From NCBI RefSeq assembly GCF_001677475.2, contig NZ_CP015229.1: DNA of 64,000 nucleotides; one strand, written 5' to 3'. Below, in pieces: positions 2,156 through 64,000 of the stretch. The translations under genes and the position numbers were made by a program. Every line of letters starts with the position of its first letter. The first letter of the stretch is position 1. Source of the DNA: Escherichia coli. GTDB taxonomy: Bacteria > Pseudomonadota > Gammaproteobacteria > Enterobacterales > Enterobacteriaceae. Below the pieces are notes generated by a model. That model worked only from the letters and a program-made list of their open reading frames with translations. It searched no databases and was not told the origin of the DNA.

Positions 2156-2919
2156 GCGAACTGATCGTCAGCCGTCAGCAACAAGTATTGTTACTGACCC
2201 TTAACCGTCCCGCCGCACGTAATGCACTGAATAATGCTCTGCTGACGCAACTGGTAAATGAACTGGAAGCTGCGGCTATCGATAGCAGTATTTCGGCCTG
2301 TGTGATTACCGGTAATGCACGCTTTTTTGCCGCCGGGGCCGATCTCAACGAAATGGCAGAAAAAGATCTTGCGGCCACCTTAAACGATACACGCCCGCAG
2401 CTATGGGCGCGATTGCAGGCCTTTAACAAACCACTCATCGCAGCCGTCAACGGTTACGCGCTTGGTGCAGGTTGCGAACTGGCATTGTTGTGCGATGTGG
2501 TGGTTGCCGGAGAGAACGCGCGTTTTGGTTTGCCGGAAATCACTCTCGGCATCATGCCTGGCGCAGGAGGAACGCAACGTTTAATCCGTAGTGTCGGTAA
2601 ATCGTTAGCCAGCAAAATGGTGCTGAGCGGAGAAAGCATCACCGCCCAGCAAGCACTGCAGGCCGGGCTGGTTAGCGACGTCTTCCCCAGCGATTTAACC
2701 CTCGAATACGCCTTACAGCTGGCGTCGAAAATGGCACGTCACTCGCCGCTGGCCTTACAAGCGGCAAAGCAAGCGCTGCGCCAGTCGCAGGAAGTGGGTT
2801 TGCAAGCCGGACTTGCCCAGGAGCGACAGTTATTCACCTTGCTGGCGGCAACAGAAGATCGTCATGAAGGCATCTCCGCTTTTTTACAAAAACGCACGCC
2901 CGACTTTAAAGGACGCTAA
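2152..2919 (+). CDS. paaF: 2,3-dehydroadipyl-CoA hydratase (enoyl-CoA hydratase family)
   Basis: Track ORF, 255 aa; crotonase fold sequence; 4-bp overlap with paaE stop. Confidence 0.9.
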   Translation: MSELIVSRQQQVLLLTLNRPAARNALNNALLTQLVNELEAAAIDSSISACVITGNARFFAAGADLNEMAEKDLAATLNDTRPQLWARLQAFNKPLIAAVNGYALGAGCELALLCDVVVAGENARFGLPEITLGIMPGAGGTQRLIRSVGKSLASKMVLSGESITAQQALQAGLVSDVFPSDLTLEYALQLASKMARHSPLALQAAKQALRQSQEVGLQAGLAQERQLFTLLAATEDRHEGISAFLQKRTPDFKGR

Positions 2920-3707
2920 TGATGGAATTCATCCTCAGTCATGTAGAAAAGGGCGTGATGACACTAACGCTCAACCGCCCGGAACGCCTGAACAGTTTTA
3001 ATGATGAGATGCACGCACAACTGGCAGAGTGCCTGAAACAGGTCGAGCGCGACGACACTATCCGTTGCCTGTTAATTACAGGTGCCGGGCGCGGATTTTG
3101 TGCTGGTCAGGATCTTAACGATCGTAACGTTGATCCCACTGGCCCCGCACCGGATTTAGGTATGTCAGTGGAGCGTTTCTATAACCCACTGGTACGTCGC
3201 CTGGCAAAACTGCCAAAACCAGTGATCTGTGCAGTCAATGGCGTGGCGGCAGGAGCTGGCGCAACACTGGCACTGGGGTGCGATATCGTTATTGCTGCCC
3301 GTTCAGCAAAATTCGTCATGGCGTTTAGTAAGTTAGGTTTGGTACCCGATTGCGGTGGTACCTGGTTACTGCCACGCGTTGCCGGACGAGCGCGCGCCCT
3401 GGGGCTGGCACTGCTGGGGAATCAACTGAGTGCTGAACAGGCGCACGAATGGGGGATGATCTGGCAGGTTGTTGATGATGAAACGCTGGCAGATACCGCG
3501 CAACAGCTGGCACGTCATCTGGCGACACAACCGACATTTGGTCTTGGACTTATCAAGCAAGCGATAAATAGCTCTGAAACCAATACGCTCGATACGCAAC
3601 TGGATCTGGAACGCGACTATCAGCGACTTGCCGGACGGAGCGCAGATTATCGTGAAGGCGTCAGTGCATTCCTGGCTAAACGCTCACCGCAGTTCACGGG
3701 GAAATAG
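2919..3707 (+). CDS. paaG: 1,2-epoxyphenylacetyl-CoA isomerase (crotonase family)
   Basis: Track ORF, 262 aa; crotonase-like; start overlaps paaF stop. Confidence 0.9.
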   Translation: MMEFILSHVEKGVMTLTLNRPERLNSFNDEMHAQLAECLKQVERDDTIRCLLITGAGRGFCAGQDLNDRNVDPTGPAPDLGMSVERFYNPLVRRLAKLPKPVICAVNGVAAGAGATLALGCDIVIAARSAKFVMAFSKLGLVPDCGGTWLLPRVAGRARALGLALLGNQLSAEQAHEWGMIWQVVDDETLADTAQQLARHLATQPTFGLGLIKQAINSSETNTLDTQLDLERDYQRLAGRSADYREGVSAFLAKRSPQFTGK

Positions 3708-6753: not shown

Positions 6754-6779
6754 GCATATCAACCTGCGAGTACCCTACA

Positions 6780-8093
6780 ATGATAACCAATACAAAGCTT
6801 GACCCGATTGAAACCGCGTCTGTTGATGAGTTACAGGCGTTGCAAACACAGCGTCTGAAATGGACGCTCAAACACGCGTATGAAAATGTGCCGATGTATC
6901 GGCGCAAATTCGACGCAGCAGGCGTACATCCTGATGATTTCAGGGAACTTTCAGACCTGCGTAAATTTCCCTGTACCACCAAACAGGATCTGCGCGACAA
7001 CTATCCCTTCGACACCTTTGCCGTGCCGATGGAACAAGTGGTGCGCATTCATGCTTCTTCGGGAACCACAGGTAAACCGACAGTTGTCGGCTATACGCAA
7101 AACGATATTGATAACTGGGCCAATATTGTAGCGCGTTCCTTGCGTGCGGCAGGTGGCACGCCCAAAGACAAAATTCATGTTGCCTATGGTTACGGCCTGT
7201 TTACTGGTGGGCTGGGCGCGCACTATGGTGCCGAACGTCTGGGCGCTACGGTGATCCCGATGTCTGGCGGGCAGACGGAAAAACAAGCGCAACTGATCCG
7301 CGATTTTCAACCAGATATGATCATGGTTACGCCATCTTATTGCCTTAACCTGATTGAAGAGCTGGAGCGGCAGTTGGGCGGTGATGCCAGCGGTTGCTCG
7401 CTGCGAGTTGGAGTGTTTGGTGCTGAGCCGTGGACACAGGCCATGCGTAAAGAGATTGAGCGTCGCCTGGGGATCACCGCACTGGATATTTACGGCCTGT
7501 CAGAAGTGATGGGGCCGGGGGTGGCGATGGAGTGTCTGGAAACTACCGACGGCCCAACCATTTGGGAAGATCATTTCTATCCTGAAATTGTTAATCCTCA
7601 GGACGGCACACCACTTGCCGATGGCGAACATGGCGAACTGTTATTCACCACGCTGACCAAAGAAGCATTGCCGGTCATTCGTTACCGCACGCGTGATTTA
7701 ACCCGACTGTTACCAGGAACGGCGCGGACTATGCGCCGCATGGATCGCATCAGCGGACGCAGCGATGACATGTTGATCATTCGCGGTGTAAATGTATTCC
7801 CGTCACAATTGGAAGAAGAGATTGTCAAATTCGAACATTTATCGCCGCATTACCAACTGGAGGTGAACCGCCGGGGGCATCTTGATTCACTTTCTGTGAA
7901 AGTGGAGTTGAAAGAAAGTAGCCTGACATTGACGCATGAGCAGCGTTGCCAGGTGTGCCACCAGTTGCGCCATCGGATTAAGTCGATGGTGGGGATCTCT
8001 ACCGATGTGATGATCGTTAACTGTGGCAGTATCCCGCGTTCAGAAGGCAAGGCGTGTCGGGTGTTTGATCTGCGCAATATTGTTGGTGCCTGA
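6780..8093 (+). CDS. paaK: Phenylacetate-CoA ligase (437 aa)
   Basis: Start at ATG 6780 (MITNTKLDPIE) within track ORF 6696..8093; adenylate-forming enzyme motif SSGTTGKPT. Confidence 0.9.
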   Translation: MITNTKLDPIETASVDELQALQTQRLKWTLKHAYENVPMYRRKFDAAGVHPDDFRELSDLRKFPCTTKQDLRDNYPFDTFAVPMEQVVRIHASSGTTGKPTVVGYTQNDIDNWANIVARSLRAAGGTPKDKIHVAYGYGLFTGGLGAHYGAERLGATVIPMSGGQTEKQAQLIRDFQPDMIMVTPSYCLNLIEELERQLGGDASGCSLRVGVFGAEPWTQAMRKEIERRLGITALDIYGLSEVMGPGVAMECLETTDGPTIWEDHFYPEIVNPQDGTPLADGEHGELLFTTLTKEALPVIRYRTRDLTRLLPGTARTMRRMDRISGRSDDMLIIRGVNVFPSQLEEEIVKFEHLSPHYQLEVNRRGHLDSLSVKVELKESSLTLTHEQRCQVCHQLRHRIKSMVGISTDVMIVNCGSIPRSEGKACRVFDLRNIVGA

Positions 8094-9793: not shown

Positions 9794-9947
9794 TTGCCGA
9801 ATGCGGCGCTTTACGCGTTTTGTTTTGGTGTCTTTCAGGACAATAGAGCAACTCATCCAGTAATCTTGTTTACGCCTTCGCATTATTTATCTCTTTTCGT
9901 TTCTATACTGATTTTTCTCAATCCGTTTTATTACAGGGCAGGGTGCG

Positions 9948-10808
9948 ATGAGCAGCAATACATTTACTCTCGGTACTAAATCCGTTAACCGTCTTGGTTA
10001 TGGCGCGATGCAACTGGCAGGTCCTGGGGTTTTTGGCCCCCCAAGAGATCGCCACGTCGCTATAACCGTGCTGCGTGAGGCGCTGGCATTGGGCGTCAAT
10101 CACATTGATACCAGCGACTTTTATGGTCCGCACGTCACCAATCAGATTATCCGCGAAGCGCTTTATCCTTACTCTGACGACCTGACAATTGTCACTAAAA
10201 TTGGTGCGCGGCGTGGAGAGGACGCTTCCTGGTTGCCCGCCTTTTCTCCGTCAGAGCTGCAAAAAGCGGTGCACGATAATCTACGTAATCTCGGGCTGGA
10301 CGTACTGGATGTGGTTAACTTGCGCATTATGATGGGGGATGGTCATGGCCCAGCGGAAGGCTCGATTGAGGCCAGCCTGACCGTGCTGGCAGAGATGCAA
10401 CAACAAGGCCTGGTAAAACATATTGGCCTGAGCAACGTCACACCGACGCAGGTTGCAGAGGCGCGCAAGATTGCCGAAATTGTCTGTGTGCAAAACGAAT
10501 ACAACATCGCGCACCGTGCTGATGATGCAATGATTGATGCTTTGGCCCACGATGGCATTGCCTACGTGCCGTTCTTCCCGCTCGGGGGCTTTACACCGCT
10601 GCAATCCTCTACGCTGTCGGATGTTGCTGCGAGCCTGGGTGCAACACCCATGCAGGTGGCGCTGGCGTGGCTGTTACAACGTTCACCGAATATTTTGCTG
10701 ATCCCAGGGACGTCTTCTGTTGCTCATTTACGGGAGAATATGGCTGCTGAAAAATTGCATCTTTCTGAGGAAGTGTTGTCTACGTTGGATGGTATTTCGC
10801 GAGAATAA
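9948..10808 (+). CDS. ydbC: Aldo-keto reductase family oxidoreductase
   Basis: Track ORF, 286 aa; AKR-type sequence (IDTSDFYGP); matches remembered YdbC. Confidence 0.85.
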   Translation: MSSNTFTLGTKSVNRLGYGAMQLAGPGVFGPPRDRHVAITVLREALALGVNHIDTSDFYGPHVTNQIIREALYPYSDDLTIVTKIGARRGEDASWLPAFSPSELQKAVHDNLRNLGLDVLDVVNLRIMMGDGHGPAEGSIEASLTVLAEMQQQGLVKHIGLSNVTPTQVAEARKIAEIVCVQNEYNIAHRADDAMIDALAHDGIAYVPFFPLGGFTPLQSSTLSDVAASLGATPMQVALAWLLQRSPNILLIPGTSSVAHLRENMAAEKLHLSEEVLSTLDGISRE

Positions 10809-10870
10809 CGAATATACAAAAGGGAAAGATGCATTTCCCTTTTTTTCTTTTTTAATGGCATGGAGTGCAT

Positions 10871-13177
10871 ATGTTTAAGGCCAGGAATTGCAGCTGGATA
10901 GGTTTACTTCCCCTGTTTATGCTGAGTCTTCCAGTACAGGCGGAACTTCGATGTGTTGCAAATGCAGTTGATATTGAACCATTTTTTTCTGCGGCTACCG
11001 CTGAAGATAAACAACAAGTTGAACAAGCTATCAACAGTAGCGTGAATCTTGTCCCCGTCGGTTTATCTGCACCGGACTGGAAAGTGCATCGTGGCAATTT
11101 AGTGGTGGAAGGTAATATAGAGAGTAATGAAAAATTGATTGTTCTTGGCAATTTGACAGTCAAAGGAAATATTTCCACTTTCTCTCTTTCTAATCCATGG
11201 GTTATTCTCGGTGATGTGACGGCAACGAATATATTTACGGATTCACCACTGTTAATTACCGGTTCGATAGATGCAAGTGGACTGGTATTTATCGACTCAT
11301 ATTACGATAATCCGTCTACGATTAAGGGAAGTATTAATGCGCGCGGGATATTTATCAATGACATAATTGCACCTGTTGTTGTGTCTTCGATAAATAGCGA
11401 ATTCATGGTCCGTGCGGGAGACAAAAATGACACTGAAAATGTCAAAAAAGCACTGACGATAATAAATCCTGATGCATATTATTGGGGCCTAATAAATGAT
11501 GAAGATGCTCTGAAAGAAATTTTTAAGCGAAGCAATATTCGCATGGCAGGGAATGTCTGTAATCAGATGAAAAAAGAAGCGCTGTTTCGCCCTAAGCCTT
11601 CTCCTGAGTTAGTGCAGGAATTGCAAATGCTGGATGAAGGCAAAGTTGCTGCATTTGAAGGACGAGACATTGCGACATTTGATCTTGCCGTAATGCGAAC
11701 TCTCCCAAGGCTTAAAGGAATTTCAGCTAACCTACGCAAACAACTTATTAATAGCAATGATGAACAAACGATTGAAAGTATGGCGAGATATATGCCCGAC
11801 AATGAGATTCTGGAGTTGACCGATCAGCAATTGGGTTACCAGCCTGTGGTTCTGGGGTTGCTCAACCGTGAACCGCTCTCTGTCGAAATAATGACGCGAA
11901 TGAGTCGTCTACCTAATGGTGTCGGTCCGTTGAATCTTGCGCTACGTGAAGATCTCCCTCTGGATATCGTCATGACTCTGGCGAAAAGAGATTGGGATAT
12001 GATCATTCAGGAGCTTTATAAAGATGCGTGGTTATTGCCCGAATCCATTATTGATGGCTATATCCGCAGTGATGATTCCTCTATTCGTCAGGTCGGTGCT
12101 GGAGGACAACTCACCTACAATCAGGCAATGCAGTTGGCGAACGATTCATCAAACAATGTTGTCACAAGCTTAGCGTTCAAGCTGGCAGAGATGAAGCACC
12201 ATGGTCAATTGTTGCGGATGACGCCACAAGAGAGTGACAAAGTTGCAGGCTATTTATACCAAAAATTCGAGAATGACGATGATCTAATACGTGTGTTATT
12301 TTTAGCATTGCCAGATAACTTACAGTTTAATTTTGTTAAAAGGATGGAGAAAAAATCCCCGGCCTACTTTTGCTGTCGGGATATGCAGGTAATTCACTCT
12401 GACGCTGCTTTACAACGGTTATTGACACGTTTCAACGATCCTGAGGGGTGGAGTAATCTGGCGAAAAATCAGTATCTGAGTACGGCGAAGAAACAAAAAA
12501 TTTGGCATCGCGCTTTATCGCATCGAAAAAATAATCCGAAAGCAGATTCAGCTGCATATGAAACCAGCGCTGATATGATTTTGTCTGAGCTTATCAGCCA
12601 CGGTGAAGTTGATGACCAGATGCTATTAAATGCCACCGCCCTGATACGTTTGGAAGACTGGGACTTTTTAGAGAGTGCATTAGTTAGTTGGGATAATTTA
12701 CCCGCTGTTGTCCTCAAGGAATTACAGCAAAATACGCCACGCAATGATATTTGGGCGAAGTTTTTTCTGAGGCAGGAAAACAGCTCCCGTGCGCAGGTTG
12801 ATGAAGCATTACGCGTCTATTATGCACTCGACCCCGGTGCGTTAGCACAACTGGATGTACTGGCAAAACAACCGGATCGTATATGGTGGAGTACACTGGC
12901 GAAAAGCAATCTCACATTTTTCAAGTTCGGCGCACTTAACAACCGCCACACACCGCCTGCAGTACTGGCGGCAGAAATTGATCCCGAGTGGTGGATTGTG
13001 GCGATGAATAATCCCCGTTTTCCAGTTGATGTATTAAAGGCGAGGCTGAAACGTGATCCTTTGCTGGCGTTAGAGCTTGTTAACCCTGAACTGGATTTAG
13101 TCCGCCAGCTGGCGCTTAACGGTAAGACGCGCGCAATACGGGAACAAGCGATGAAAAAACTTGATGAGTTGTATTGA
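10871..13177 (+). CDS. ydbD: Secreted protein YdbD: signal peptide, beta-helix-like N-terminal region, repeat-rich C-terminal region
   Basis: Track ORF 10865..13177; hydrophobic signal peptide ending VQA-ELR; start could be ATG 10865 or 10871. Confidence 0.85.
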   Translation: MFKARNCSWIGLLPLFMLSLPVQAELRCVANAVDIEPFFSAATAEDKQQVEQAINSSVNLVPVGLSAPDWKVHRGNLVVEGNIESNEKLIVLGNLTVKGNISTFSLSNPWVILGDVTATNIFTDSPLLITGSIDASGLVFIDSYYDNPSTIKGSINARGIFINDIIAPVVVSSINSEFMVRAGDKNDTENVKKALTIINPDAYYWGLINDEDALKEIFKRSNIRMAGNVCNQMKKEALFRPKPSPELVQELQMLDEGKVAAFEGRDIATFDLAVMRTLPRLKGISANLRKQLINSNDEQTIESMARYMPDNEILELTDQQLGYQPVVLGLLNREPLSVEIMTRMSRLPNGVGPLNLALREDLPLDIVMTLAKRDWDMIIQELYKDAWLLPESIIDGYIRSDDSSIRQVGAGGQLTYNQAMQLANDSSNNVVTSLAFKLAEMKHHGQLLRMTPQESDKVAGYLYQKFENDDDLIRVLFLALPDNLQFNFVKRMEKKSPAYFCCRDMQVIHSDAALQRLLTRFNDPEGWSNLAKNQYLSTAKKQKIWHRALSHRKNNPKADSAAYETSADMILSELISHGEVDDQMLLNATALIRLEDWDFLESALVSWDNLPAVVLKELQQNTPRNDIWAKFFLRQENSSRAQVDEALRVYYALDPGALAQLDVLAKQPDRIWWSTLAKSNLTFFKFGALNNRHTPPAVLAAEIDPEWWIVAMNNPRFPVDVLKARLKRDPLLALELVNPELDLVRQLALNGKTRAIREQAMKKLDELY

Positions 13178-13346
13178 TCCACAACGTAATATTTCTTAAC
13201 TATTTGATTAATTGGGATAATCATTCCTGACAGTGAGTCCCCAATACCTTGATATATTCTGAATTTTTAATGAAGCGGCGTGTTGCGATATCTCCGTCAG
13301 GGGAATTGATGCACCATAACGCAAACCGAATTATCAAGGATTGATA

Positions 13347-13952
13347 ATGACGCTCTACCAGATAAAACCGCTCTTTCAGTCGCTGTTAAGGCCGACGATG
13401 TTTTGGCTTTATAAGCACCACGTTACAGCGAATCACATCACTCTTGCTGCACTGGCGCTTTCTCTTCTTACCGGTTTGCTGTTGATGTTGGTGTCACAAC
13501 CCATCCTCTTTATGCTATTGCCCATCGTGCTTTTTGTCCGTATGGCGCTTAACGCGCTGGATGGTATGCTTGCGCGTGAGTGCAATCAGCAAACACGGCT
13601 TGGGGCAATTTTGAATGAGACTGGCGATGTTATTTCCGATATTGCTCTCTATTTACCGTTTTTATTTTTACCGGAAAGTAACGCATCACTCGTGATACTC
13701 ATGTTATTTTGCACCATATTGACCGAGTTTTGCGGTTTACTCGTGCAGACGATTAACGGTGTTCGCAATTATGCCGGTCCATTTGGCAAAAGCGATCGCG
13801 CGTTAATATTTGGTCTGTGGGGGCTAGCCGTTGCCATTTATCCACAGTGGATGCAATGGAATAATCTTTTATGGAGCATTGCTTCAATTCTGCTTCTCTG
13901 GACTGCGATTAATCGTTGTCGGAGTGTGCTCCTGATGAGCGCTGAAAGATAA
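13347..13952 (+). CDS. ynbA: CDP-alcohol phosphatidyltransferase family membrane protein
   Basis: Track ORF 13341..13952; CAPT-like motif DGMLAR...G...D...D; multiple TM segments. Confidence 0.85.
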   Translation: MTLYQIKPLFQSLLRPTMFWLYKHHVTANHITLAALALSLLTGLLLMLVSQPILFMLLPIVLFVRMALNALDGMLARECNQQTRLGAILNETGDVISDIALYLPFLFLPESNASLVILMLFCTILTEFCGLLVQTINGVRNYAGPFGKSDRALIFGLWGLAVAIYPQWMQWNNLLWSIASILLLWTAINRCRSVLLMSAER

Positions 13953-14848
13953 TGCTGGAAAAATCTCTGGCAACACTTTTCGCGTTGTTAATTTTAGCAA
14001 CGCTGATAAACCGTTTTCTGGTATGGCGGTTACCGGAGAGAAAAGAGGATGAAGTTACATTACGTATTCGTACCTGGTGGGGCATCGTCATTTGTTTTTC
14101 ACTGGTGATTTCAGGTCCACGCTGGATGACGTTGACGTTTTTTACGCTGATAAGTTTTCTGGCATTGAAAGAATATTGTACGCTTATATCCGTACATTTT
14201 CCGCGTTGGTTATATTGGGTTATTCCTCTTAACTATTTGCTTATCGGTTTTAATTGCTTTGAGCTGTTTCTGTTATTTATACCTTTGACTGGGTTTCTGA
14301 TATTAGCCACCTGGCGAGTTTTTGTGGGTGACCCCTCCGGTTTTCTGCATACCGTGAGCGCCATTTTTTGGGGCTGGATAATGACCGTTTTTGCCTTGAG
14401 TCATGCCGCCTGGCTATTAATGTTGCCAACCATAAATATCCAGGGCGGGGCGTTACTGGTGTTATTTCTTTTGGCGTTAACCGAGTCAAACGATATTGCA
14501 CAGTATTTATGGGGGAAATCCTGCGGCAGAAGAAAAGTGGTCCCCAAAGTCAGCCCAGGAAAAACGCTGGAAGGTCTGGTGGGGGGCGTAATCACCACCA
14601 TGATTGCGTCACTGATTATTGGACCGTTGCTGACACCGCTAAATACATTACAGGCATTATTAGCGGGTTTGTTAATTGGTATTAGTGGTTTTTGCGGCGA
14701 TGTAGTGATGTCAGCCATCAAACGAGATATTGGTGTTAAAGATAGTGGAAAACTATTACCAGGACATGGCGGACTCCTTGACAGGATTGACTCATTAATT
14801 TTCACCGCTCCGGTATTTTTTTATTTTATTCGCTACTGCTGTTACTGA
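13952..14848 (+). CDS. ynbB: Phosphatidate cytidylyltransferase (CdsA)-like membrane protein
   Basis: Track ORF, 298 aa; C-terminal CDS signature SAIKRDIGVKDSGKLLPGHGGLLDRIDS; start overlaps ynbA stop. Confidence 0.85.
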   Translation: MLEKSLATLFALLILATLINRFLVWRLPERKEDEVTLRIRTWWGIVICFSLVISGPRWMTLTFFTLISFLALKEYCTLISVHFPRWLYWVIPLNYLLIGFNCFELFLLFIPLTGFLILATWRVFVGDPSGFLHTVSAIFWGWIMTVFALSHAAWLLMLPTINIQGGALLVLFLLALTESNDIAQYLWGKSCGRRKVVPKVSPGKTLEGLVGGVITTMIASLIIGPLLTPLNTLQALLAGLLIGISGFCGDVVMSAIKRDIGVKDSGKLLPGHGGLLDRIDSLIFTAPVFFYFIRYCCY

Positions 14849-14863
14849 AGGAAAATAGAGAAA

Positions 14864-17927
<3,064 letters not shown>

Positions 17928-17977
17928 GTGGATTGAGATGTGGACTGAACTACAGTCCACATCAAGATCGTATCCGG

Positions 17978-18592
<615 letters not shown>

Positions 18593-18783: not shown

Positions 18784-21700
18784 ATGACAGAACAACAAAA
18801 ATTGACCTTTACTGCTTTGCAACAGCGGCTGGATTCGCTGATGCTGCGCGACAGACTGCGTTTTTCTCGCCGTCTGCACGGTGTTAAGAAGGTTAAAAAT
18901 CCTGATGCACAACAGGCCATTTTCCAGGAAATGGCGAAAGAGATTGACCAGGCGGCAGGGAAAGTCCTGCTGCGTGAAGCGGCACGACCGGAAATCACTT
19001 ATCCGGACAATTTGCCAGTTAGTCAGAAAAAGCAGGACATACTCGAAGCGATTCGCGATCACCAGGTGGTGATCGTCGCCGGGGAAACGGGTTCTGGTAA
19101 AACGACTCAGTTACCGAAAATCTGTATGGAGCTGGGGCGCGGGATTAAAGGGCTGATCGGCCATACCCAGCCGCGTCGCCTGGCGGCAAGAACGGTGGCG
19201 AACCGTATTGCGGAAGAGCTGAAAACGGAGCCGGGCGGTTGCATCGGTTACAAAGTGCGTTTCAACGATCACGTAAGTGATAACACGATGGTCAAGCTGA
19301 TGACCGACGGTATCCTGTTGGCGGAGATCCAACAAGACCGCCTGCTAATGCAGTACGACACCATCATTATTGACGAGGCGCACGAACGCAGCCTGAATAT
19401 CGATTTTCTGCTCGGCTATTTGAAAGAGTTGCTGCCGCGGCGTCCTGACCTAAAAATCATTATCACTTCCGCGACTATCGACCCGGAACGCTTTTCGCGC
19501 CACTTTAATAATGCGCCGATTATTGAAGTCTCCGGTCGGACTTATCCGGTGGAAGTGCGCTATCGCCCGATAGTTGAAGATGCGGATGACACTGAGCGCG
19601 ACCAGTTGCAGGCGATTTTTGACGCCGTGGATGAACTGGGGCGTGAAAGTGCCGGCGACATTCTGATCTTTATGAGCGGCGAGCGGGAAATTCGCGATAC
19701 CGCCGATGCGCTGAACAAGCTGAATCTGCGTCATACGGAAATTTTACCGCTTTATGCGCGGCTTTCGAATAGCGAACAGAACCGCGTGTTCCAGTCGCAC
19801 AGCGGACGGCGTATTGTGCTGGCGACCAACGTCGCGGAAACCTCGCTGACCGTACCGGGGATTAAATACGTTATCGACCCCGGTACGGCGCGTATCAGCC
19901 GCTACAGCTATCGCACCAAAGTGCAGCGTTTGCCGATTGAACCCATTTCACAGGCGTCTGCCAATCAGCGTAAAGGCCGTTGTGGTCGTGTGTCCGAAGG
20001 GATCTGTATTCGTCTCTATTCCGAAGACGATTTCCTCTCGCGCCCGGAGTTTACCGATCCAGAGATTCTGCGTACCAACCTGGCCTCGGTTATTTTGCAG
20101 ATGACCGCGCTGGGGCTGGGCGATATCGCTGCGTTCCCGTTTGTCGAAGCACCGGATAAACGCAATATCCAGGATGGCGTGCGTCTGCTCGAAGAGCTGG
20201 GCGCGATCACCACTGATGAACAGGCCAGCGCCTATAAACTGACGCCGCTCGGTCGTCAGCTCTCGCAGTTGCCTGTCGACCCACGTCTGGCGCGTATGGT
20301 GCTGGAAGCGCAAAAACATGGCTGCGTGCGTGAGGCGATGATTATCACGTCCGCGCTCTCCATTCAGGATCCGCGCGAACGTCCGATGGACAAACAGCAG
20401 GCATCGGACGAAAAACATCGTCGCTTCCACGACAAAGAGTCTGACTTCCTGGCGTTTGTGAATCTGTGGAATTATCTTGGCGAGCAGCAAAAGGCGCTTT
20501 CTTCAAACGCCTTCCGTCGCCTGTGTCGTACCGATTATCTCAACTATCTGCGTGTGCGCGAATGGCAGGATATCTACACCCAGTTGCGTCAGGTGGTGAA
20601 AGAACTTGGCATTCCGGTCAACAGCGAACCGGCGGAGTATCGCGAAATTCACATCGCCTTACTGACCGGTTTGCTTTCCCATATCGGCATGAAAGATGCC
20701 GATAAACAGGAATATACCGGTGCACGTAACGCGCGTTTCTCCATCTTCCCCGGTTCTGGTTTATTCAAAAAGCCGCCGAAATGGGTAATGGTGGCGGAAT
20801 TGGTAGAAACCAGCCGCCTGTGGGGGCGCATTGCTGCGCGTATCGATCCAGAATGGGTGGAACCCGTTGCGCAGCATTTGATTAAACGCACCTACAGCGA
20901 ACCGCACTGGGAACGGGCGCAGGGCGCGGTGATGGCAACGGAAAAAGTCACTGTGTATGGATTGCCGATTGTTGCCGCGCGCAAGGTCAACTACAGCCAG
21001 ATTGATCCGGCGTTATGTCGTGAACTCTTTATTCGCCACGCGCTGGTGGAAGGTGACTGGCAGACGCGTCACGCATTCTTCCGTGAAAACCTGAAACTGC
21101 GGGCCGAAGTGGAAGAACTGGAACACAAATCACGTCGCCGCGATATTCTGGTTGATGACGAAACGTTGTTTGAGTTTTATGACCAGCGCATCAGCCACGA
21201 TGTAATCTCCGCTCGTCACTTCGACAGCTGGTGGAAAAAAGTCAGCCGCGAAACGCCTGATTTGCTGAACTTTGAAAAGAGCATGTTGATCAAAGAAGGG
21301 GCGGAAAAAATCAGCAAGCTGGATTACCCGAACTTCTGGCATCAGGGCAATCTCAAGCTGCGTTTGAGCTATCAGTTTGAGCCCGGCGCGGATGCTGACG
21401 GTGTGACGGTACATATCCCGCTGCCGTTACTTAATCAGGTTGAGGAGAGTGGGTTTGAGTGGCAGATCCCCGGCCTGCGCCGCGAACTGATCATCGCGCT
21501 GATTAAATCGTTGCCGAAACCGGTACGGCGTAATTTTGTACCCGCGCCAAACTACGCCGAAGCGTTCTTAGGCCGCGTCACGCCACTGGAGCTGCCGTTG
21601 CTCGACAGCCTTGAGCGCGAGCTACGTAGGATGACCGGCGTTACCGTTGACCGCGAGGACTGGCACTGGGATCAGGTGCCCGATCACCTGAAAATCACCT

Positions 21701-58333: not shown

Positions 58334-58413
58334 TAGATATGGCGAGGGTGAAAACTGAGAGACGTGCCTGACTTTTATCACGCCGTATCCGGCACCTTCG
58401 TCAGTAATTTGAA

Positions 58414-58441
58414 TTTGCCCGGCACGTAGCCGGGCAATTTT
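58414..58441. terminator. Bidirectional terminator between convergent yncE and ansP
   Basis: Stem TTGCCCGGC/GCCGGGCAA, then TTTT. Confidence 0.65.
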
Positions 58442-58445
58442 GCAA

Positions 58446-59945
58446 TTAACTCGCCGTTTCAGGTTTAAACACAATTTCCTGTTTTTCTTCATCTTCCTCG
58501 ACGACTGGCGCAGTGCTGTGAATTTCAGCAACGCGTTTGCGCACACCAAACCAGCCTATAACCAGCAGAATACCGATAATCGGCAGCGCCGCGATGGTAT
58601 AAGTCCCGTTCGGGTAATCGAATGCCATCAGCACCAGGACACTCAGTAAAAACAGTAATGTCAGCCAGGAAGTGAAGGGCGCGCCAGGCAGTTTAAAACT
58701 GACATCCGCTGCTTTGCCTTCTTTAATCGCTTTACGCAGGCGCATCTGGCACACGATGATAAACGCCCATGAAGCGATGATTCCCAGCGACGCGAAGTTC
58801 AACACAATCTCAAATACGCGCGACGGCACCAGATAGTTGAGGAATACGCCGACGACATAAACGACCAGTGTCGCCAGAATCCCGGCATACGGCACATGCT
58901 GACGGCTCATTTTCGCCATAAAACTCGGTGCGGAACCGCCCATCGCCATCGAGCGTAGAATACGTCCGGTGCAGTACAGACCTGAGTTCAGGCTGGAGAG
59001 GGCAGCGGTCAGCACCACAATGTTCATAATGCTGCCGATGTACGGCACACCCAGTTTAGAGAAAAACGTCACGAACGGACTTTGCCCAGCCTGATACGCG
59101 CTCCACGGCAATAACATAACCAGCAACACCACGGAGCCGACGTAAAACAGGCCAATACGCCAAATCACACTGTTAATCGCTTTAGGCACCATGGTCTGCG
59201 GATCTTTACATTCTCCGGCAGCTGTACCCACCATTTCAATGGAGGCAAAAGCAAACACTACGCCCTGAATCAACACCAGAGCAGGAAGCAAACCGTGGGG
59301 GAAGAAGCCGCCATTATCGGTGATTAAATGAAAGCCAGTGGTGTTGCCATCCAGCGGCTGACCACTACCGAGGAACACTGTACCCACGACCAAAAAGGTC
59401 ACAATGGCGAGCACTTTAATAAGCGCAAACCAGAACTCCATCTCCGCAAACCATTTCACACCAATCATATTCATGGTGCCAACGATGGTAAGTGCAGCGA
59501 GCGCAAAGACCCACTGCGGCACGCCGCCAAACGCCCCCCAGTAATGCATATACAGCGCTACAGCGGTGATATCGACAATCCCCGTCATCGCCCAGTTAAT
59601 GAAGTACATCCAGCCTGCAACGTAAGCGGCTTTCTCTCCTAAAAACTCACGGGCATAAGAGACAAAGCTGCCACTGGAAGGGCGATGTAACACCAGCTCA
59701 CCCAATGCACGCAGAATAAAAAACGAAAACAGGCCACATATTAAATAAACCAGTGCCAGCGCAGGACCCGCCATTTGCAGTCGGGCTCCTGCACCTAAAA
59801 ACAAGCCGGTGCCAATCGCGCCGCCAATGGCGATCATCTGCACCTGGCGATTGCCCATCGCTTTGTGATACCCCTCTTCGTGGGCATTAAGCCAGCGGCG
59901 TTTCGCGGCGTGTTGATCTGGAGTGTCGGTGTCGTGTTTACTCAT
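58446..59945 (-). CDS. ansP: L-asparagine permease (APC family)
   Basis: Start at ATG 59945 (MSKHDTDTPDQHAAKRRWLNAHEEGYHKAM) inside track ORF 58446..59996; 499 aa. Confidence 0.9.
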   Translation of the reverse strand: MSKHDTDTPDQHAAKRRWLNAHEEGYHKAMGNRQVQMIAIGGAIGTGLFLGAGARLQMAGPALALVYLICGLFSFFILRALGELVLHRPSSGSFVSYAREFLGEKAAYVAGWMYFINWAMTGIVDITAVALYMHYWGAFGGVPQWVFALAALTIVGTMNMIGVKWFAEMEFWFALIKVLAIVTFLVVGTVFLGSGQPLDGNTTGFHLITDNGGFFPHGLLPALVLIQGVVFAFASIEMVGTAAGECKDPQTMVPKAINSVIWRIGLFYVGSVVLLVMLLPWSAYQAGQSPFVTFFSKLGVPYIGSIMNIVVLTAALSSLNSGLYCTGRILRSMAMGGSAPSFMAKMSRQHVPYAGILATLVVYVVGVFLNYLVPSRVFEIVLNFASLGIIASWAFIIVCQMRLRKAIKEGKAADVSFKLPGAPFTSWLTLLFLLSVLVLMAFDYPNGTYTIAALPIIGILLVIGWFGVRKRVAEIHSTAPVVEEDEEKQEIVFKPETAS

Positions 59946-60295
59946 TGCTCTCCCTGATTGCTTTAATGAAAAAGTCATATAAGTTGCCATGAACAATGTT
60001 TATTCATCCTGGCGATGACAAGATTCACCATTATTCTTTATGGGTATAACTGTCGGCGCAGAATCCTACCTTTTATCGTGTAACGATGCAAAATAATCCC
60101 GCTATAAATATGAGGGGATAAAGGCGGCCGGCAACAAAATAGCAACCTGATGAAATTTTGACGGAAACAACCACTATTGGTTTGATGATGCCCGACGGCA
60201 GTCCTACTCTTGCGCCACTCGTTCGTCGCTCTGAACGCCAGTGGTTGCAGTGGACACTGGCGTGGTTGGCTCATTGAATAGTGAGGTGCTAGCAC

Positions 60296-60472
60296 ATGAC
60301 GGGTTTCAGGGGTAATACACCAAATACCAATACAATTGCTGATTATATGAGCCAATTGCCGATGTTACAGAAAAGGCTAAAAAATGTAAGAGGCATGCAG
60401 GATGATAAACGCGCTATTGCCCAACAGGGGTTTCTGGAATTAGTCCTGTTCCATGGTCATTACAACTCTTAA
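60296..60472 (+). CDS. Hypothetical small protein (58 aa); identity not recognised
   Basis: ATG 60296 preceded by GAGGTG; hand translation MTGFRGNTPNTNTIADYMSQLPMLQKRLKNVRGMQDDKRAIAQQGFLELVLFHGHYNS; not in ORF track. Confidence 0.25.
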   Translation: MTGFRGNTPNTNTIADYMSQLPMLQKRLKNVRGMQDDKRAIAQQGFLELVLFHGHYNS

Positions 60473-60882
60473 AACATTACTTCAATATAATTAATGTGTA
60501 TATCATTCCCGATATTAATTTATGAAGTGAATTTGATATATTCCGAATTCTTAATTTACATTACTAATGTATGGGGCATAACGTTAAGATTGCTATGTGC
60601 AGATTAACATATCAGGGTGGGGCGGTAGCGTTTACAGATATTAATCAATTGATGAGAATTATGTTAACTGCGTAATCATTTGCATCGATTATTGATATTG
60701 AAGATAGATTAATAAAAATGCTGAGAATTAATGTTAAAAAATCATAACGGGAAACGTTGATAACTTGCTTTGATTTCATTTTCTATGAAGATGATGTCAT
60801 CAATACTGTATAAAGTGGAAATGTTGAACATCAAAGAGCGTTTGTGTTTTATCTGAAAGATATTATTTCCAGGGGGAAGGAT

Positions 60883-61013
60883 ATGTCATTAAGGAGAATG
60901 ACATCTGGTGAATTAACATTGGCCAGATCGATTTTTGAGAATACAATTGATTATAGCAAGGTATGGATCCACAATGAAAAATATTTGCCTGGTCAAGGGG
61001 AAAGAACAGCGAT
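60883..61013 (+). pseudogene. 5' fragment of a host ORF interrupted by the prophage insertion
   Basis: ATG 60883 with GGAAGGA RBS; MSLRRMTSGELTLARSIFENTIDYSKVWIHNEKYLPGQGERTAI then reads straight into the Mu-type end at 61014 (track ORF 60844..61083 is the chimera). Confidence 0.4.
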
Positions 61014-61190
61014 TGTATTGATTCACTTGAAGTACGAAAAAAACCGGGAGGACATTGGATTATTCGGGATTTGGCGGGATTAGATTTAGTGGGGCTTGCA
61101 AGCCTGTAGGACAGATTTTAGCCGTTACATCTTGAAACGCGAAAGATTGTTGGAAACAGCTTTTGATTCATTAAAGACACGAAAAGCAAT
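61014..61190 (+). repeat. Prophage attL with transposase end-binding sites L1, L2 and L3
   Basis: L1 about 61019-61040 (TGATTCACTTGAAGTACGAAAA), L2 about 61128-61147 (CTTGAAACGCGAAAGA), L3 about 61164-61186 (TGATTCATTAAAGACACGAAAAG); terminal 5'-TG. Confidence 0.8.
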
Positions 61191-61352
61191 TACTTCACGC
61201 ATCATTTCAAGTACAGCTTCAAAAATGCTTCAAAAACGGTAACAACCAGGCTTTCGGCAAGTGATGTGTGTCAAAAACAATCATCACTGTTTGGGTATCT
61301 TACATATGTAATTACCTAGAGTGAAGTTTATGTCTTAGCTATTACCTGGTTG

Positions 61353-61877
61353 TTATACAGCTTTCTTTACATCGTTTTCTCTTACAGGGAAATTATGTTC
61401 TTTGCCTTCATACTGAGACAAAATCTCTCTCACTTTTTCAGGTGGTAATGCCTGAAGAGTTTGCAGGGTTTTCTGTTGATCCACAGTAATCCCTAATGCC
61501 TCTAATGCCTTATCTTTACTGACAATTGTAGGCATAAGTCCTTTAATCCCTGCTACACGAATGATCTCCACAGCTGCGGCCTGCTCATCTGGTGTTAAGA
61601 AGCTCATTGCATAAATTAGCCTCTCATCAACTGTATGGGCGATTGATGTATGCACTGGTTTATCAGAAAGTGAGGCTCCTTTAATGGCCCTACGTGTTTC
61701 TTCTGGCAGACTGTTGATGTGATACTCATAAGCGACACCTTTCCCACCGTGACGCTGACGTTTTACCCAATCTTCCGCCACAGCTTTCCTGGTAATGTTA
61801 GTCGCCAACTTTGGTACACCAGGCATCCCTTCCAGCTCTTTCGCATTAAACCATTCTTTGATTTCAAAAGACATCAT
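61353..61877 (-). CDS. c: Mu-type lysogeny repressor (174 aa)
   Basis: Track ORF; C-terminus ...NDVKKAV resembles Mu repressor ...QEVKKAV; N-terminal region resembles the transposase N-terminus; leftward orientation as in Mu. Confidence 0.85.
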   Translation of the reverse strand: MMSFEIKEWFNAKELEGMPGVPKLATNITRKAVAEDWVKRQRHGGKGVAYEYHINSLPEETRRAIKGASLSDKPVHTSIAHTVDERLIYAMSFLTPDEQAAAVEIIRVAGIKGLMPTIVSKDKALEALGITVDQQKTLQTLQALPPEKVREILSQYEGKEHNFPVRENDVKKAV

Positions 61878-62057
61878 TTAAAATCCTAGCGATTTCAATA
61901 GAGACAAAATAAATTCATATAAAAATCATGCCGTTATATGAAATCATGGTAAATACTTTCAAATCTCTATTGATTTGAAAATGATTCCACACTACATTGC
62001 ACGATATGCCGTGAGCTACTTTATAGCGTAGCTCACGGGGGAATCTGAAAGGATTAC
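61878..62057. promoter_or_regulatory. Prophage early control region (operators, divergent promoters, transposition enhancer) by position
   Basis: Intergenic AT-rich region between divergent repressor and ner; individual operators not resolved by eye. Confidence 0.5.
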
Positions 62058-62062
62058 ATGAA

Positions 62063-62284
62063 ATGCATATGAATAAAAGAACTAACCGCCAAGATTGGCA
62101 CAGAGCTGACATCGTTGCAGAGCTACGAAAACGCAATATGTCACTAGCTGAATTGGGAAGATCTAATCATCTTTCGTCTTCAACATTAAAAAATGCTTTG
62201 GATAAGAGATATCCGAAAGCGGAGAAAATCATTGCAGATGCACTGGGAATGACACCGCAAGATATTTGGCCGTCTCGATACTAG
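62063..62284 (+). CDS. ner: Ner-like DNA-binding regulator of early transcription (73 aa)
   Basis: Track ORF; [33 protein letters not shown]... resembles Mu Ner (...DWHRADVIAGLKKRKLSLSALSR...); AAGGA RBS. Confidence 0.85.
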
Positions 62285-62291
62285 GTGCGCT

Positions 62292-64000
62292 ATGAAAGAA
62301 TGGTATACAGCAAAAGAGTTGCTCGGTTTGGCAGGTTTACCAAAGCAAGCCACTAACATTACACGTAAGGCACAAAGAGAAGGCTGGGAGTTCAGGCAGG
62401 TTGCAGGGACTAAAGGTGTATCATTTGAATTCAATATCAAATCATTCCCTGTCGCATTACGTGCTGAAATTCTGTTGCAACAAGGGAGAATTGAAACAAG
62501 CCAGGGGTATTTTGAAATCGCCCGCCCCACGCTGGAAGCCCACGATTACGATCGCGGGGCACTGTGGAGCAAATGGGATAAAGCCAGCGATTCCCAGCGC
62601 AGACTTGCTGAAAAATGGTTGCCTGCAGTTCAGGCCGCAGACGAAATGCTGAACCAGGGGATTTCAACAAAAACGGCTTTTGCGACCGTTGCAGGACATT
62701 ACCAGGTCAGCGCATCCACTTTGCGAGACAAGTATTACCAGGTACAGAAGTTTGCGAAGCCTGACTGGGCGGCTGCACTTGTTGATGGACGTGGTGCATC
62801 TCGTCGCAATGTTCACAAAAGTGAATTTGACGAGGATGCCTGGCAGTTTCTGATTGCAGATTATCTGCGACCGGAAAAACCCGCCTTCCGCAAATGTTAT
62901 GAGCGTCTGGAACTGGCAGCCCGCGAGCATGGCTGGAGTATTCCCTCCCGTGCCACGGCCTTTCGCCGGATTCAGCAACTGGACGAGGCAATGGTTGTTG
63001 CCTGTCGTGAAGGTGAACATGCACTGATGCATCTGATACCGGCACAGCAGCGAACTGTGGAACACCTGGACGCCATGCAGTGGATCAACGGCGACGGTTA
63101 TCTGCATAACGTCTTTGTACGCTGGTTTAACGGTGATGTGATCCGCCCGAAAACATGGTTCTGGCAGGATGTGAAAACCCGAAAAATTCTGGGCTGGCGC
63201 TGCGATGTGAGCGAGAACATTGATTCAATTCGCCTCTCGTTCATGGATGTGGTGACACGCTACGGCATCCCGGAAGATTTTCACATCACCATTGATAACA
63301 CCCGTGGGGCAGCGAATAAATGGCTGACGGGGGGCGCGCCCAATCGTTACCGCTTTAAGGTGAAAGAGGACGATCCAAAGGGACTGTTTTTACTGATGGG
63401 CGCGAAAATGCACTGGACAAGCGTTGTTGCCGGTAAAGGCTGGGGCCAGGCAAAACCTGTTGAACGTGCTTTCGGTGTTGGTGGGCTTGAGGAATACGTT
63501 GATAAGCATCCGGCACTGGCTGGCGCATATACGGGGCCAAATCCGCAGGCAAAACCTGATAACTATGGCGACCGTGCTGTTGATGCAGAGCTGTTTCTGA
63601 AAACCCTTGCTGAAGGTGTGGCGATGTTCAATGCCAGAACAGGCCGTGAAACAGAAATGTGCGGGGGCAAACTCTCGTTTGATGATGTTTTCGAGCGTGA
63701 ATACGCCAGAACGATTGTGCGTAAGCCAACCGAAGAACAAAAACGGATGCTGTTACTGCCTGCCGAAGCGGTGAACGTTTCACGCAAAGGCGAGTTTACG
63801 CTTAAAGTTGGCGGCTCCCTTAAAGGCGCGAAAAACGTTTATTACAACATGGCGTTAATGAATGCAGGCGTGAAAAAAGTTGTGGTCAGGTTTGATCCGC
63901 AGCAGCTACACAGCACAGTTTATTGCTACACCCTGGACGGTCGGTTTATCTGTGAAGCGGAATGTCTGGCACCTGTTGCATTTAATGATGCTGCGGCAGG
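62292..64000 (+). CDS. A: MuA-type DDE transposase, N-terminal ~569 codons (3' end outside window)
   Basis: Not in ORF track because there is no stop before the window end; hand translation [32 protein letters not shown]... with DDE residues at codons 268 (INGDGY), 335 (ITIDNTRG) and 391 (PVERAF). Confidence 0.9.

Follow-up and report, generated by a model that had tools for sequence, protein, structure and literature searches.

A conserved, ops-bearing AT-rich leader that probably heads a prophage-severed type VI secretion island in Escherichia coli

Introduction

The operon polarity suppressor (ops) element, read on the non-template strand in the untranslated leaders of long operons acquired horizontally, is where paused RNA polymerase takes up RfaH, a paralogue of NusG (PMC2871177, PMC5995543, PMC6358824). 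Classical JUMPStart/ops leaders, those of rfaQ (waaQ), rfb/wzx, wza, kps and hly, are untranslated, contain the 12-nt ops and precede a long, horizontally acquired and H-NS-covered operon (PMC2871177, PMC6358824), the cargo of which is envelope polysaccharide or haemolysin. Here, we describe an AT-rich tract (positions 60473-60882) of an Escherichia coli contig (NZ_CP015229.1, assembly GCF_001677475.2), analysed within a 64,000-nt stretch that we call the window, which would be a leader of this kind placed before an interbacterial weapon: a type VI secretion system (T6SS) island.

The closest described system is the c1882-c1889 locus of CFT073, one of the eight RfaH loci reported in this strain by Hustmyer et al. 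in 2022 (PMC9765446). Its ops, GGCGGTAGCGTA, lies at 1715753-1715764, 313 nt before the first gene, and the RfaH chromatin immunoprecipitation (ChIP) peak recorded in an hns stpA double mutant spans 1715707-1723246 (7.5 kb), beginning 46 bp before ops (PMC9765446, Data set S2). In the wild type the c1882 leader is bound by H-NS, and an upstream sigma70 peak appears in the double mutant only (PMC9765446). In enteroaggregative E. coli (EAEC), the Sci1 T6SS cluster is under RfaH/ops control through ops1 and ops2, and a minimal or degenerate, non-consensus ops that keeps GGTAGNNT is functional there (10.1101/2025.02.08.637259); these sites are intergenic within the main T6SS cluster, whereas the site described here heads an orphan effector/vgrG/Rhs island. 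For K-12, the yncH-rhsE spacer contains RpoD-holoenzyme and H-NS sites in genomic SELEX (systematic evolution of ligands by exponential enrichment; PMC3946193) and has been flagged as H-NS-bound by ChIP sequencing (PMC10294691). In enterohaemorrhagic E. coli (EHEC), the cusS-linked island has a transcriptionally silent promoter (PMC7618764), and swapping the vgrG1 promoter yielded neither VgrG1 nor RhsF (PMC13141884). The regulation of orphan vgrG/Rhs islands in E. coli is described as unknown in recent papers (PMC13141884).

We consider it likely that the tract is a silenced, RfaH-ops-bearing 5' leader, probably including the promoter, of a T6SS operon that was acquired horizontally and has been severed by a prophage. 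An element of this kind is already understood and explained by known biology; what is new is the allele, with an ops ending in T, together with an island that opens with a metallopeptidase effector. The coordinates of all features are collected in Table 1.

Results

An AT-rich, non-coding leader

Over 60473-60843 (371 bp) the GC content is 29.1%, against 49.7% for the window, and the sliding-window calculation identified this as the lowest-GC 371-bp stretch of the whole 64 kb. Windows of this length have a standard deviation of 4.9%, and just 0.05% of them are as low. The tract falls within 60311-61075, the sole region of the window below 34% GC, while the other intergenic stretches range from 35 to 50%; TpA steps occur at 0.111 per base versus 0.046 window-wide. 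The AT-rich tract that the first-pass annotation had claimed before an interrupted open reading frame (ORF) is therefore real, and the run quoted from it, TTAATTTATGAAGTGAATTTGATATATTCC, occurs once, at 60515-60544. The proposed end of the tract has to be moved, since the annotated start of the gene in relatives is ATG 60883 and not GTG 60844; the non-coding leader is therefore 60473-60882. Two statements about its position also have to be corrected. The tract lies upstream of the interrupted gene rather than immediately upstream of the insertion site, as the prophage junction (61013/61014) is 170 bp past it, and it lies on the 5' side of ansP rather than downstream, because ansP is on the minus strand.

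Within 60473-60882, no ORF exceeds 44 residues. In the intact relatives AR_0077 (L001), LI60C3 (L002) and Escherichia sp. E1V33 (L010), the leader is directly upstream of the effector gene, and the annotation of these relatives places no coding sequence in it.

The ops element and its surroundings

The leader contains GGCGGTAGCGTT, which agrees with ops GGCGGTAGCGTG at 11 of the 12 positions and is the only match with one mismatch or fewer in the window. Its orientation is that of the downstream operon: it is on the non-template strand for rightward transcription, and both the effector fragment in the window and all island genes in the intact relatives are on the + strand. It lies in untranslated DNA, the overlapping 34-residue ORF having no conserved start codon. 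Across eight leader variants only ops positions 1, 10 and 12 vary, positions 2-9 and 11 being invariant. The invariant set includes T11 together with C3, G4, G5, T6, A7 and G8, at which substitution abolishes or reduces RfaH recruitment (PMC5995543). From the 11/12 match, the strand, the position in the leader and the conservation across species, we infer that RfaH would be loaded at this site.

The ops is part of a JUMPStart-like element, ATGTGCAGATTAACATATCAGGGTGG-GGCGGTAGCGTT. The JUMPStarts of wzx, wza, kpsM and rfaQ in CFT073 have a CAGTG box, then about 22-27 nt, CCAGG and ops; the window version consists of ATGTGC, 20 nt, CAGGGTGG and ops, and CFT073 c1882 has CAGTGC. The leader resembles the classical elements in its CAGG before ops and in an upstream (C/A)(A/T)GTGC box at a comparable distance (about 20-27 nt), whereas the classical central GGTAGCTGTTAAGCC is not kept and G12 is replaced by T.

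Conservation of the leader module

Compared with two other Escherichia species, 60440-60650 is 95.3% and 93.4% identical, whereas the adjoining yncG remnant reaches 79.6% and 78.6% (Fisher test of module versus remnant, p ~1e-7 and 2e-6). In the same comparison the ansP coding sequence is ~91% identical and the distal part of the tract (60651-60882) 63-84%. Judged by this interspecies comparison, the first ~180 bp of the tract are under purifying selection.

Paralogous modules sit 350-480 bp upstream of vgrG in the islands beside cusS and beside yncH, the latter being the classical RhsE locus (L005-L007). Sharing among islands is limited to a module of ~150 bp; the rest of the leaders cannot be aligned, and the VgrG proteins are 33-34% identical. 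A 22-nt core, TATCAGGGTGGGGCGGTAGCGT (60610-60631), is invariant or nearly so in every copy, including that of Superficieibacter electus, where eight inserted nucleotides stand between it and the conserved GTGCAGAT block. When the whole collection was scanned with a 20-mer of this core, it was found at three loci only, in two Escherichia species and S. electus. The S. electus copy (L008 3858-3915) has the ops GGCGGTAGCGTA; it follows ynbABCD-like genes in an AT-rich intergenic region and points into four co-directional AT-rich ORFs without a recognizable family; by their position, these may form an uncharacterized RfaH-dependent cluster in another genus.

Upstream of ops, a near-palindrome, GAATTTGATATATTC, overlaps the predicted -35 hexamer TTGATA. 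It takes the form GAATTTgatAAATTC in cusS-type leaders and GAATTTaatAAATTC in K-12, is kept in the ansP-, yncH- and cusS-type leaders of Escherichia and is degenerate in the CFT073 leader. Comparing the conserved blocks by eye, with no dedicated tool, with the consensus sequences for sigma54, Fur, CRP, FNR, IHF, marbox, PhoP, RcsAB and CsrA gave nothing convincing.

Homologous leaders and H-NS

The c1882 region of CFT073 occupies the same locus as the window, in the order pqqU-yncE-ansP-yncG pseudogene-[ops]-PAAR-vgrG-DUF4123, and its AT-rich leader aligns with the module, with which it has the JUMPStart-like core and the non-template-strand ops in common. From ops to the first gene there are 262 nt in the window and 313 nt in CFT073. 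The two differ in that the CFT073 ops ends in A rather than T, and outside the core the leaders are ~50% identical. Their cargo also differs: metallopeptidase effector, immunity protein, vgrG, Eag and Rhs follow in the island of the window, and PAAR, vgrG, DUF4123 and others in CFT073. Directly after ops, CFT073 retains the remnant of an ISAs1 end, whereas in the window the operon is severed by the prophage.

The K-12 yncH-rhsE spacer is the positional counterpart of the tract and contains the module with its ops, GGCGGTAGCGTA (L004 10621-10632). It differs in being ~68-76% identical and in that its leader is a relic, with yncG and yncH intact in K-12. The intact ops/JUMPStart-like module there precedes a dead locus, in which vgrG is deleted and rhsE is a pseudogene without its N-terminus. 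A FlhDC SELEX peak in this spacer falls, by coordinate conversion, several hundred base pairs upstream of the module, at a resolution too low to use. The EHEC leader carries AGCGGTAGCATA.

The tract resembles H-NS-silenced xenogeneic DNA in general in having a GC content ~20 points below the genome average, many TpA steps, an accessory distribution and dense promoter-like hexamers; unlike such DNA, part of it is strongly constrained and carries a specific elongation-factor signal. The predicted binding of the window tract by H-NS is supported by the experiments on the homologous leaders cited above.

An accessory T6SS island

Of 5,426 complete E. coli genomes, 214 contain the full tract and 229 the whole stretch 59946-61014. 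A further ~570 genomes keep just the first 145 bp of the tract, abutted by the left end of ISEc1 (ISAs1 family), the island being gone (L003). In 3,831 other genomes the sole match is a ~74% paralogue of 60487-60634 at a different place, ahead of other vgrG genes, and ~800 have no match to the tract at all. At the cusS locus the homologous module is inside the island; genomes free of the island end at the cusS stop codon, and the module therefore belongs to the island. A plasmid search returned matches only to mislabelled chromosomes. The patch is accessory. The earlier suggestions that the prophage landed in such a patch rather than in core sequence, and that the DNA is horizontally acquired, agree with this distribution, with the break in K-12 haplotype at ansP and with the mosaic GC content (30-62%) of the T6SS island; the GC content of the tract is outside the normal range, and its sequence is not the same in all strains.

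In the intact relatives, the island consists of a metallopeptidase effector, an immunity lipoprotein, vgrG, a DcrB/Eag-type protein and Rhs (1,555 residues), as seen from the VgrG Pfam domains, a DcrB match and the Rhs annotation. The product of the intact effector gene (L001 9938-10468) contains HEMMH, and its match to the effector domain of VgrG2b (PDB 6H56) has E=1.2e-18; the next gene (118 residues) matches the T6SS immunity lipoprotein model NF045617 with E=2.3e-7, which is under the curated cut-off. In L001 the co-directional genes at 9938-18226 extend over ~8.3 kb, or ~8.9 kb if the next ORF (ending at 18807) is counted, and have GC contents of 30-62%. The GC content is 30-38% across a 1.5-kb block that comprises the leader, the effector and immunity genes and the spacer up to vgrG, and then rises to 49% in vgrG and 62% in the Rhs core, a typical mosaic. 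At the ansP/RhsE locus of E. coli, the tract forms the head of a T6SS accessory island.

In the pair at L001 9938-10821, the effector is homologous to the C-terminal HExxH metallopeptidase effector of VgrG2b and stands alone; its partner is a periplasmic lipoprotein immunity gene. RefSeq labels the effector gene 'type IV secretion protein Rhs' or 'hypothetical', and Pantoea, Rahnella, Erwinia and Cronobacter have homologues with ~45% identity.

Three independent lineages have the left end of an ISAs1-family element (H-repeat/ISEc1-like; CAGGGAAAGATCACG...) within the ops module or directly behind it, always in one orientation: L003 9668-9690 (~60613-60617), L015 ~6772-6900 (just after 60632) and L009 ~10545-10700 (~60755). 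In the ~570 genomes mentioned above, the ISEc1 junction overlaps the CAGGG of the core, with ops and the whole island deleted. At the cusS locus of strain LR-46 (L014 ~2230-3470), an IS3-family element lies ~30 bp past the ops module and truncates the vgrG island.

Chromosomal setting and prophage

On the other side of the tract, yncD/pqqU, yncE and ansP of the window are 97-99% identical to K-12. This identity falls exactly at the ansP start codon, from 97-99% to 86-88% over the next 177 bp, where identity to the cryptic-clade genome E1V33 stays at 94%. The boundary at 59946 may thus mark the breakpoint of an ancient recombination or introgression, with the promoter region of ansP included. 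Between this region and the tract lies a decayed yncG, 68.6% identical in nucleotide sequence to yncG of K-12 (L004). One of its ORFs (60158-60277) is 55% identical to YncG residues 64-101, and another (60296-60472) matches residues 175-200; RefSeq annotation of relatives includes one of the yncG fragments as a 39-residue 'hypothetical protein'. In the yncE-ansP intergenic region, at 58341-58540, identity dips to 84% with K-12 and 68% with E1V33 amid surroundings of 97-99%, and this dip is probably an indel-rich terminator or intergenic region.

The prophage has inactivated the T6SS metallopeptidase effector gene, which is cut after 131 nt. The left end of the prophage reads TGTATTGATTCAC... 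(TGTATTGATTCACTTGAAGTACG...), and the junction at 61013/61014 was found in none of the 5,426 genomes. We presume the prophage genes to be those named in Table 1 by comparison with the left-end sequence and gene order of phage Mu; the flanking 5 bp, GCGAT, fit the Mu target consensus NYSRN. Transcription from the leader into the prophage would run antisense to the repressor gene and in the sense direction for ner, A and B. Together with the AT-rich operator region of the phage, the tract forms a continuous block of ~2 kb (60300-62300) with 38% GC.

Table 1. Features of the ansP-prophage interval of the window (positions in the 64,000-nt stretch).
Feature	Position	Strand	Remarks
ansP upstream region, start of divergent non-K-12 haplotype	59946..60122	.	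86-88% identity to K-12, 94% to Escherichia sp. E1V33
Decayed yncG remnant (glutathione S-transferase family)	60123..60472	+	GC 46.9%; yncH absent
AT-rich non-coding 5' leader of T6SS accessory operon	60473..60882	+	GC 29.8%, TpA 0.107 per base
Conserved leader module common to vgrG/PAAR/Rhs islands	60487..60650	+	74-76% identity to cusS- and yncH-locus leaders
Near-palindrome GAATTTGATATATTC	60529..60543	.	Candidate operator or -35 region
Best sigma70-like match upstream of ops, TTGATA-18-TACATT	60533..60562	+	Hypothetical promoter
JUMPStart-like element ATGTGCAGATTAACATATCAGGGTGG-GGCGGTAGCGTT	60595..60632	+	Layout like CFT073 wzx, wza, kpsM and rfaQ JUMPStarts
ops element GGCGGTAGCGTT	60621..60632	+	Predicted RfaH recruitment and pause site
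5' part (43 codons) of gene for 176-residue HExxH metallopeptidase T6SS effector	60883..61013	+	First 131 nt; truncated by prophage
Mu-like prophage	61014..64000	+	Runs off window end
Prophage repressor gene	61353-61877	-	Presumed from Mu gene order
ner-like gene	62063-62284	+	Presumed from Mu gene order
Transposase gene	from 62294	+	Presumed from Mu gene order

Discussion

The comparison with c1882 and the classical leaders leads us to propose the following course of events. Owing to its extreme AT-richness, the tract would be covered by H-NS/StpA filaments that keep initiation off under ordinary conditions, as has been shown for the K-12 and CFT073 homologues. When a promoter upstream of 60621 fires, the JUMPStart-like element would be transcribed and ops GGCGGTAGCGTT exposed on the non-template strand; both conceivable sources, the candidate TTGATA-18-TACATT and read-through from the old yncG promoter, are hypothetical. 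RfaH would then bind ops and displace NusG, protecting the polymerase against pausing, termination by Rho and roadblocks of H-NS, and the modified polymerase could cross the ~9-kb operon of mixed composition, RfaH loading having been demonstrated by ChIP at CFT073 c1882. The Mu-like insertion lies in the first gene, and the leader is therefore separated from at least the rest of the operon; with the prophage 131 nt into this gene, the leader would now be a disconnected head, from which read-through would meet the left end of the phage.

Several observations weigh against this proposal. The ops itself departs from the classical form where it matters for pausing: of the pause-inducing TG at positions 11-12, T11 is present and position 12 is T, whereas all classical validated E. 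coli targets have TG (PMC5995543). The G12C substitution loses the U11 pause and keeps RfaH recruitment in vitro (PMC5995543). Furthermore, the kpsM ops GGCGGTAGCATA is RfaH-bound in CFT073 (PMC9765446) without G12, and a non-G at this position is therefore tolerated in vivo. The T12 departure thus weakens the case for RfaH without excluding function. Sites with GGCGGTAGCGTT in CFT073 gave no RfaH signal, though those lie within coding regions, and at c1882 the enrichment is weak (1.7-fold) and seen only without H-NS/StpA (PMC9765446). A match to ops with one mismatch or fewer occurs by chance in ~25% of shuffled windows; as the motif alone is not significant, the case rests on strand, leader position, conservation and the experiments on homologues. 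On the promoter side, no sigma70 promoter was found in a conserved register across the leader variants, the candidate TTGATA-18-TACATT is not kept in the paralogous leaders, and the promoter predicted by Shimada et al. for the K-12 spacer, TTGACT-17-TATTAC (L004 10718-10746), lies downstream of ops (PMC3946193). The H-NS high-affinity motif TCGATAAATT has three sites with two mismatches or fewer, versus 1.3 +/- 1.1 in composition-matched shuffles (p=0.14). Finally, the operon is broken in the strain of the window.

These points could be accommodated if the module were a promoter and operator for conventional transcription factors or an anti-silencer, its ops-like 12-mer being vestigial or coincidental because T12 abolishes the pause. 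The conserved 15-bp near-palindrome and the conserved blocks 5' of ops would fit such a regulatory site, as would the nine promoter-like sites in the tract (4.9 +/- 2.2 in shuffles), and the removal of the U11 pause by substitution of G12 (PMC5995543) and the lack of significance of the motif alone point the same way. However, the ops positions required by RfaH are invariant across leaders that differ elsewhere by 25-50%, the same-locus site of CFT073 loads RfaH with A12, and recruitment survived G12C in vitro; we therefore regard a conventional operator as unlikely. It is considerably harder to see the tract as a functionless AT-rich spacer or decaying foreign DNA, with a composition due to foreign origin and mutational bias. 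The extremely low GC content, the adjoining pseudogene remnant and the fast divergence of the distal half (60651-60882, 63-84% between species) are what decay would produce, yet the first ~180 bp are 93-95% identical between species where the yncG remnant is ~79%, and the module is kept at ~75% before unrelated islands. This explanation has very little probability in our judgement.

The remaining alternatives concern the conserved core itself. A structured RNA, either a small RNA such as an ops-containing, RirA-like decoy (from the waaQ leader) or a riboregulator in the 5' untranslated region, has a precedent in RirA, which demonstrates that an ops-bearing leader can give rise to a small RNA (PMC6358824), and the loop of the hairpin predicted by RNAalifold accommodates the 8-nt insertion of Superficieibacter. 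Against it, the Rfam scan of 59900-61100 gave only sub-threshold matches to eukaryotic snoRNAs, typical of AT-rich DNA, folding z-scores ranged from -1.3 to +0.7 with a minimum-energy fold that differs per variant, and neither compensatory changes (RNAalifold) nor a terminator-like site was seen. A stable or covarying RNA structure was rejected for lack of covariation and for its inconsistent folds, and the RNA explanation as a whole seems to us very improbable. The chance that the core codes for a small protein or leader peptide (MCRLTYQGGAVAF..., ATG 60595, ORF 60571-60675) is slighter still. All variants keep the frame open, and both H6/EHEC core substitutions are synonymous in it, but the ATG is AGG in E. 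whittamii, the C-terminus and length vary (23 to 39 residues), one codon varies between T, R, K and C, a good Shine-Dalgarno sequence is missing, and in Superficieibacter the conserved upstream nucleotides stand in a different reading frame. With its start lost, its length variable and its variation non-synonymous, the small ORF over the ops core was rejected as probably not coding. We find it just as hard to credit that the core is the terminus of a mobile element or a recombination site, for example an ISAs1-related end. ISAs1-family left ends do abut or follow it in three independent lineages; however, it shares only CAGGG with the ISAs1 inverted repeat CAGGGAAAGATCACG, and there is no second copy in the 18-kb K-12 locus or in the window. 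The reading as an insertion sequence terminus was rejected on the same limited agreement with the ISEc1 inverted repeat.

We return to the silenced RfaH-ops leader, and to what it would mean beyond this strain. More tentatively, and with somewhat less than even confidence, we suggest that the ~150-bp JUMPStart/ops module is a portable, selectively maintained head of orphan T6SS islands in Escherichia, with RfaH control over H-NS silencing as a common gate. The islands sharing this head would be the ansP type, the K-12/RhsE type, the CFT073 PAAR type and the EHEC cusS-linked vgrG1-rhsF/G type, plus the relative in Superficieibacter. Unrelated cargo (VgrG proteins 33% identical) would be swapped behind one head, at which ISAs1 elements land repeatedly. 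If this is true, the portable head offers a reason for the failed promoter swap at EHEC vgrG1 (PMC13141884), in which the ops leader was perhaps lost or bypassed.

An AT-rich leader that looks like junk can outdo an adjacent coding gene in conservation between species. With the rhsE relic of K-12 counted, the module and its ops stand before four versions of cargo at two loci, the RfaH-contact bases being invariant, and the single observation at CFT073 c1882 is thereby extended to a family. For this family, the proposal predicts that expression would depend on rfaH and on ops, and that the islands would be de-repressed in hns stpA mutants.

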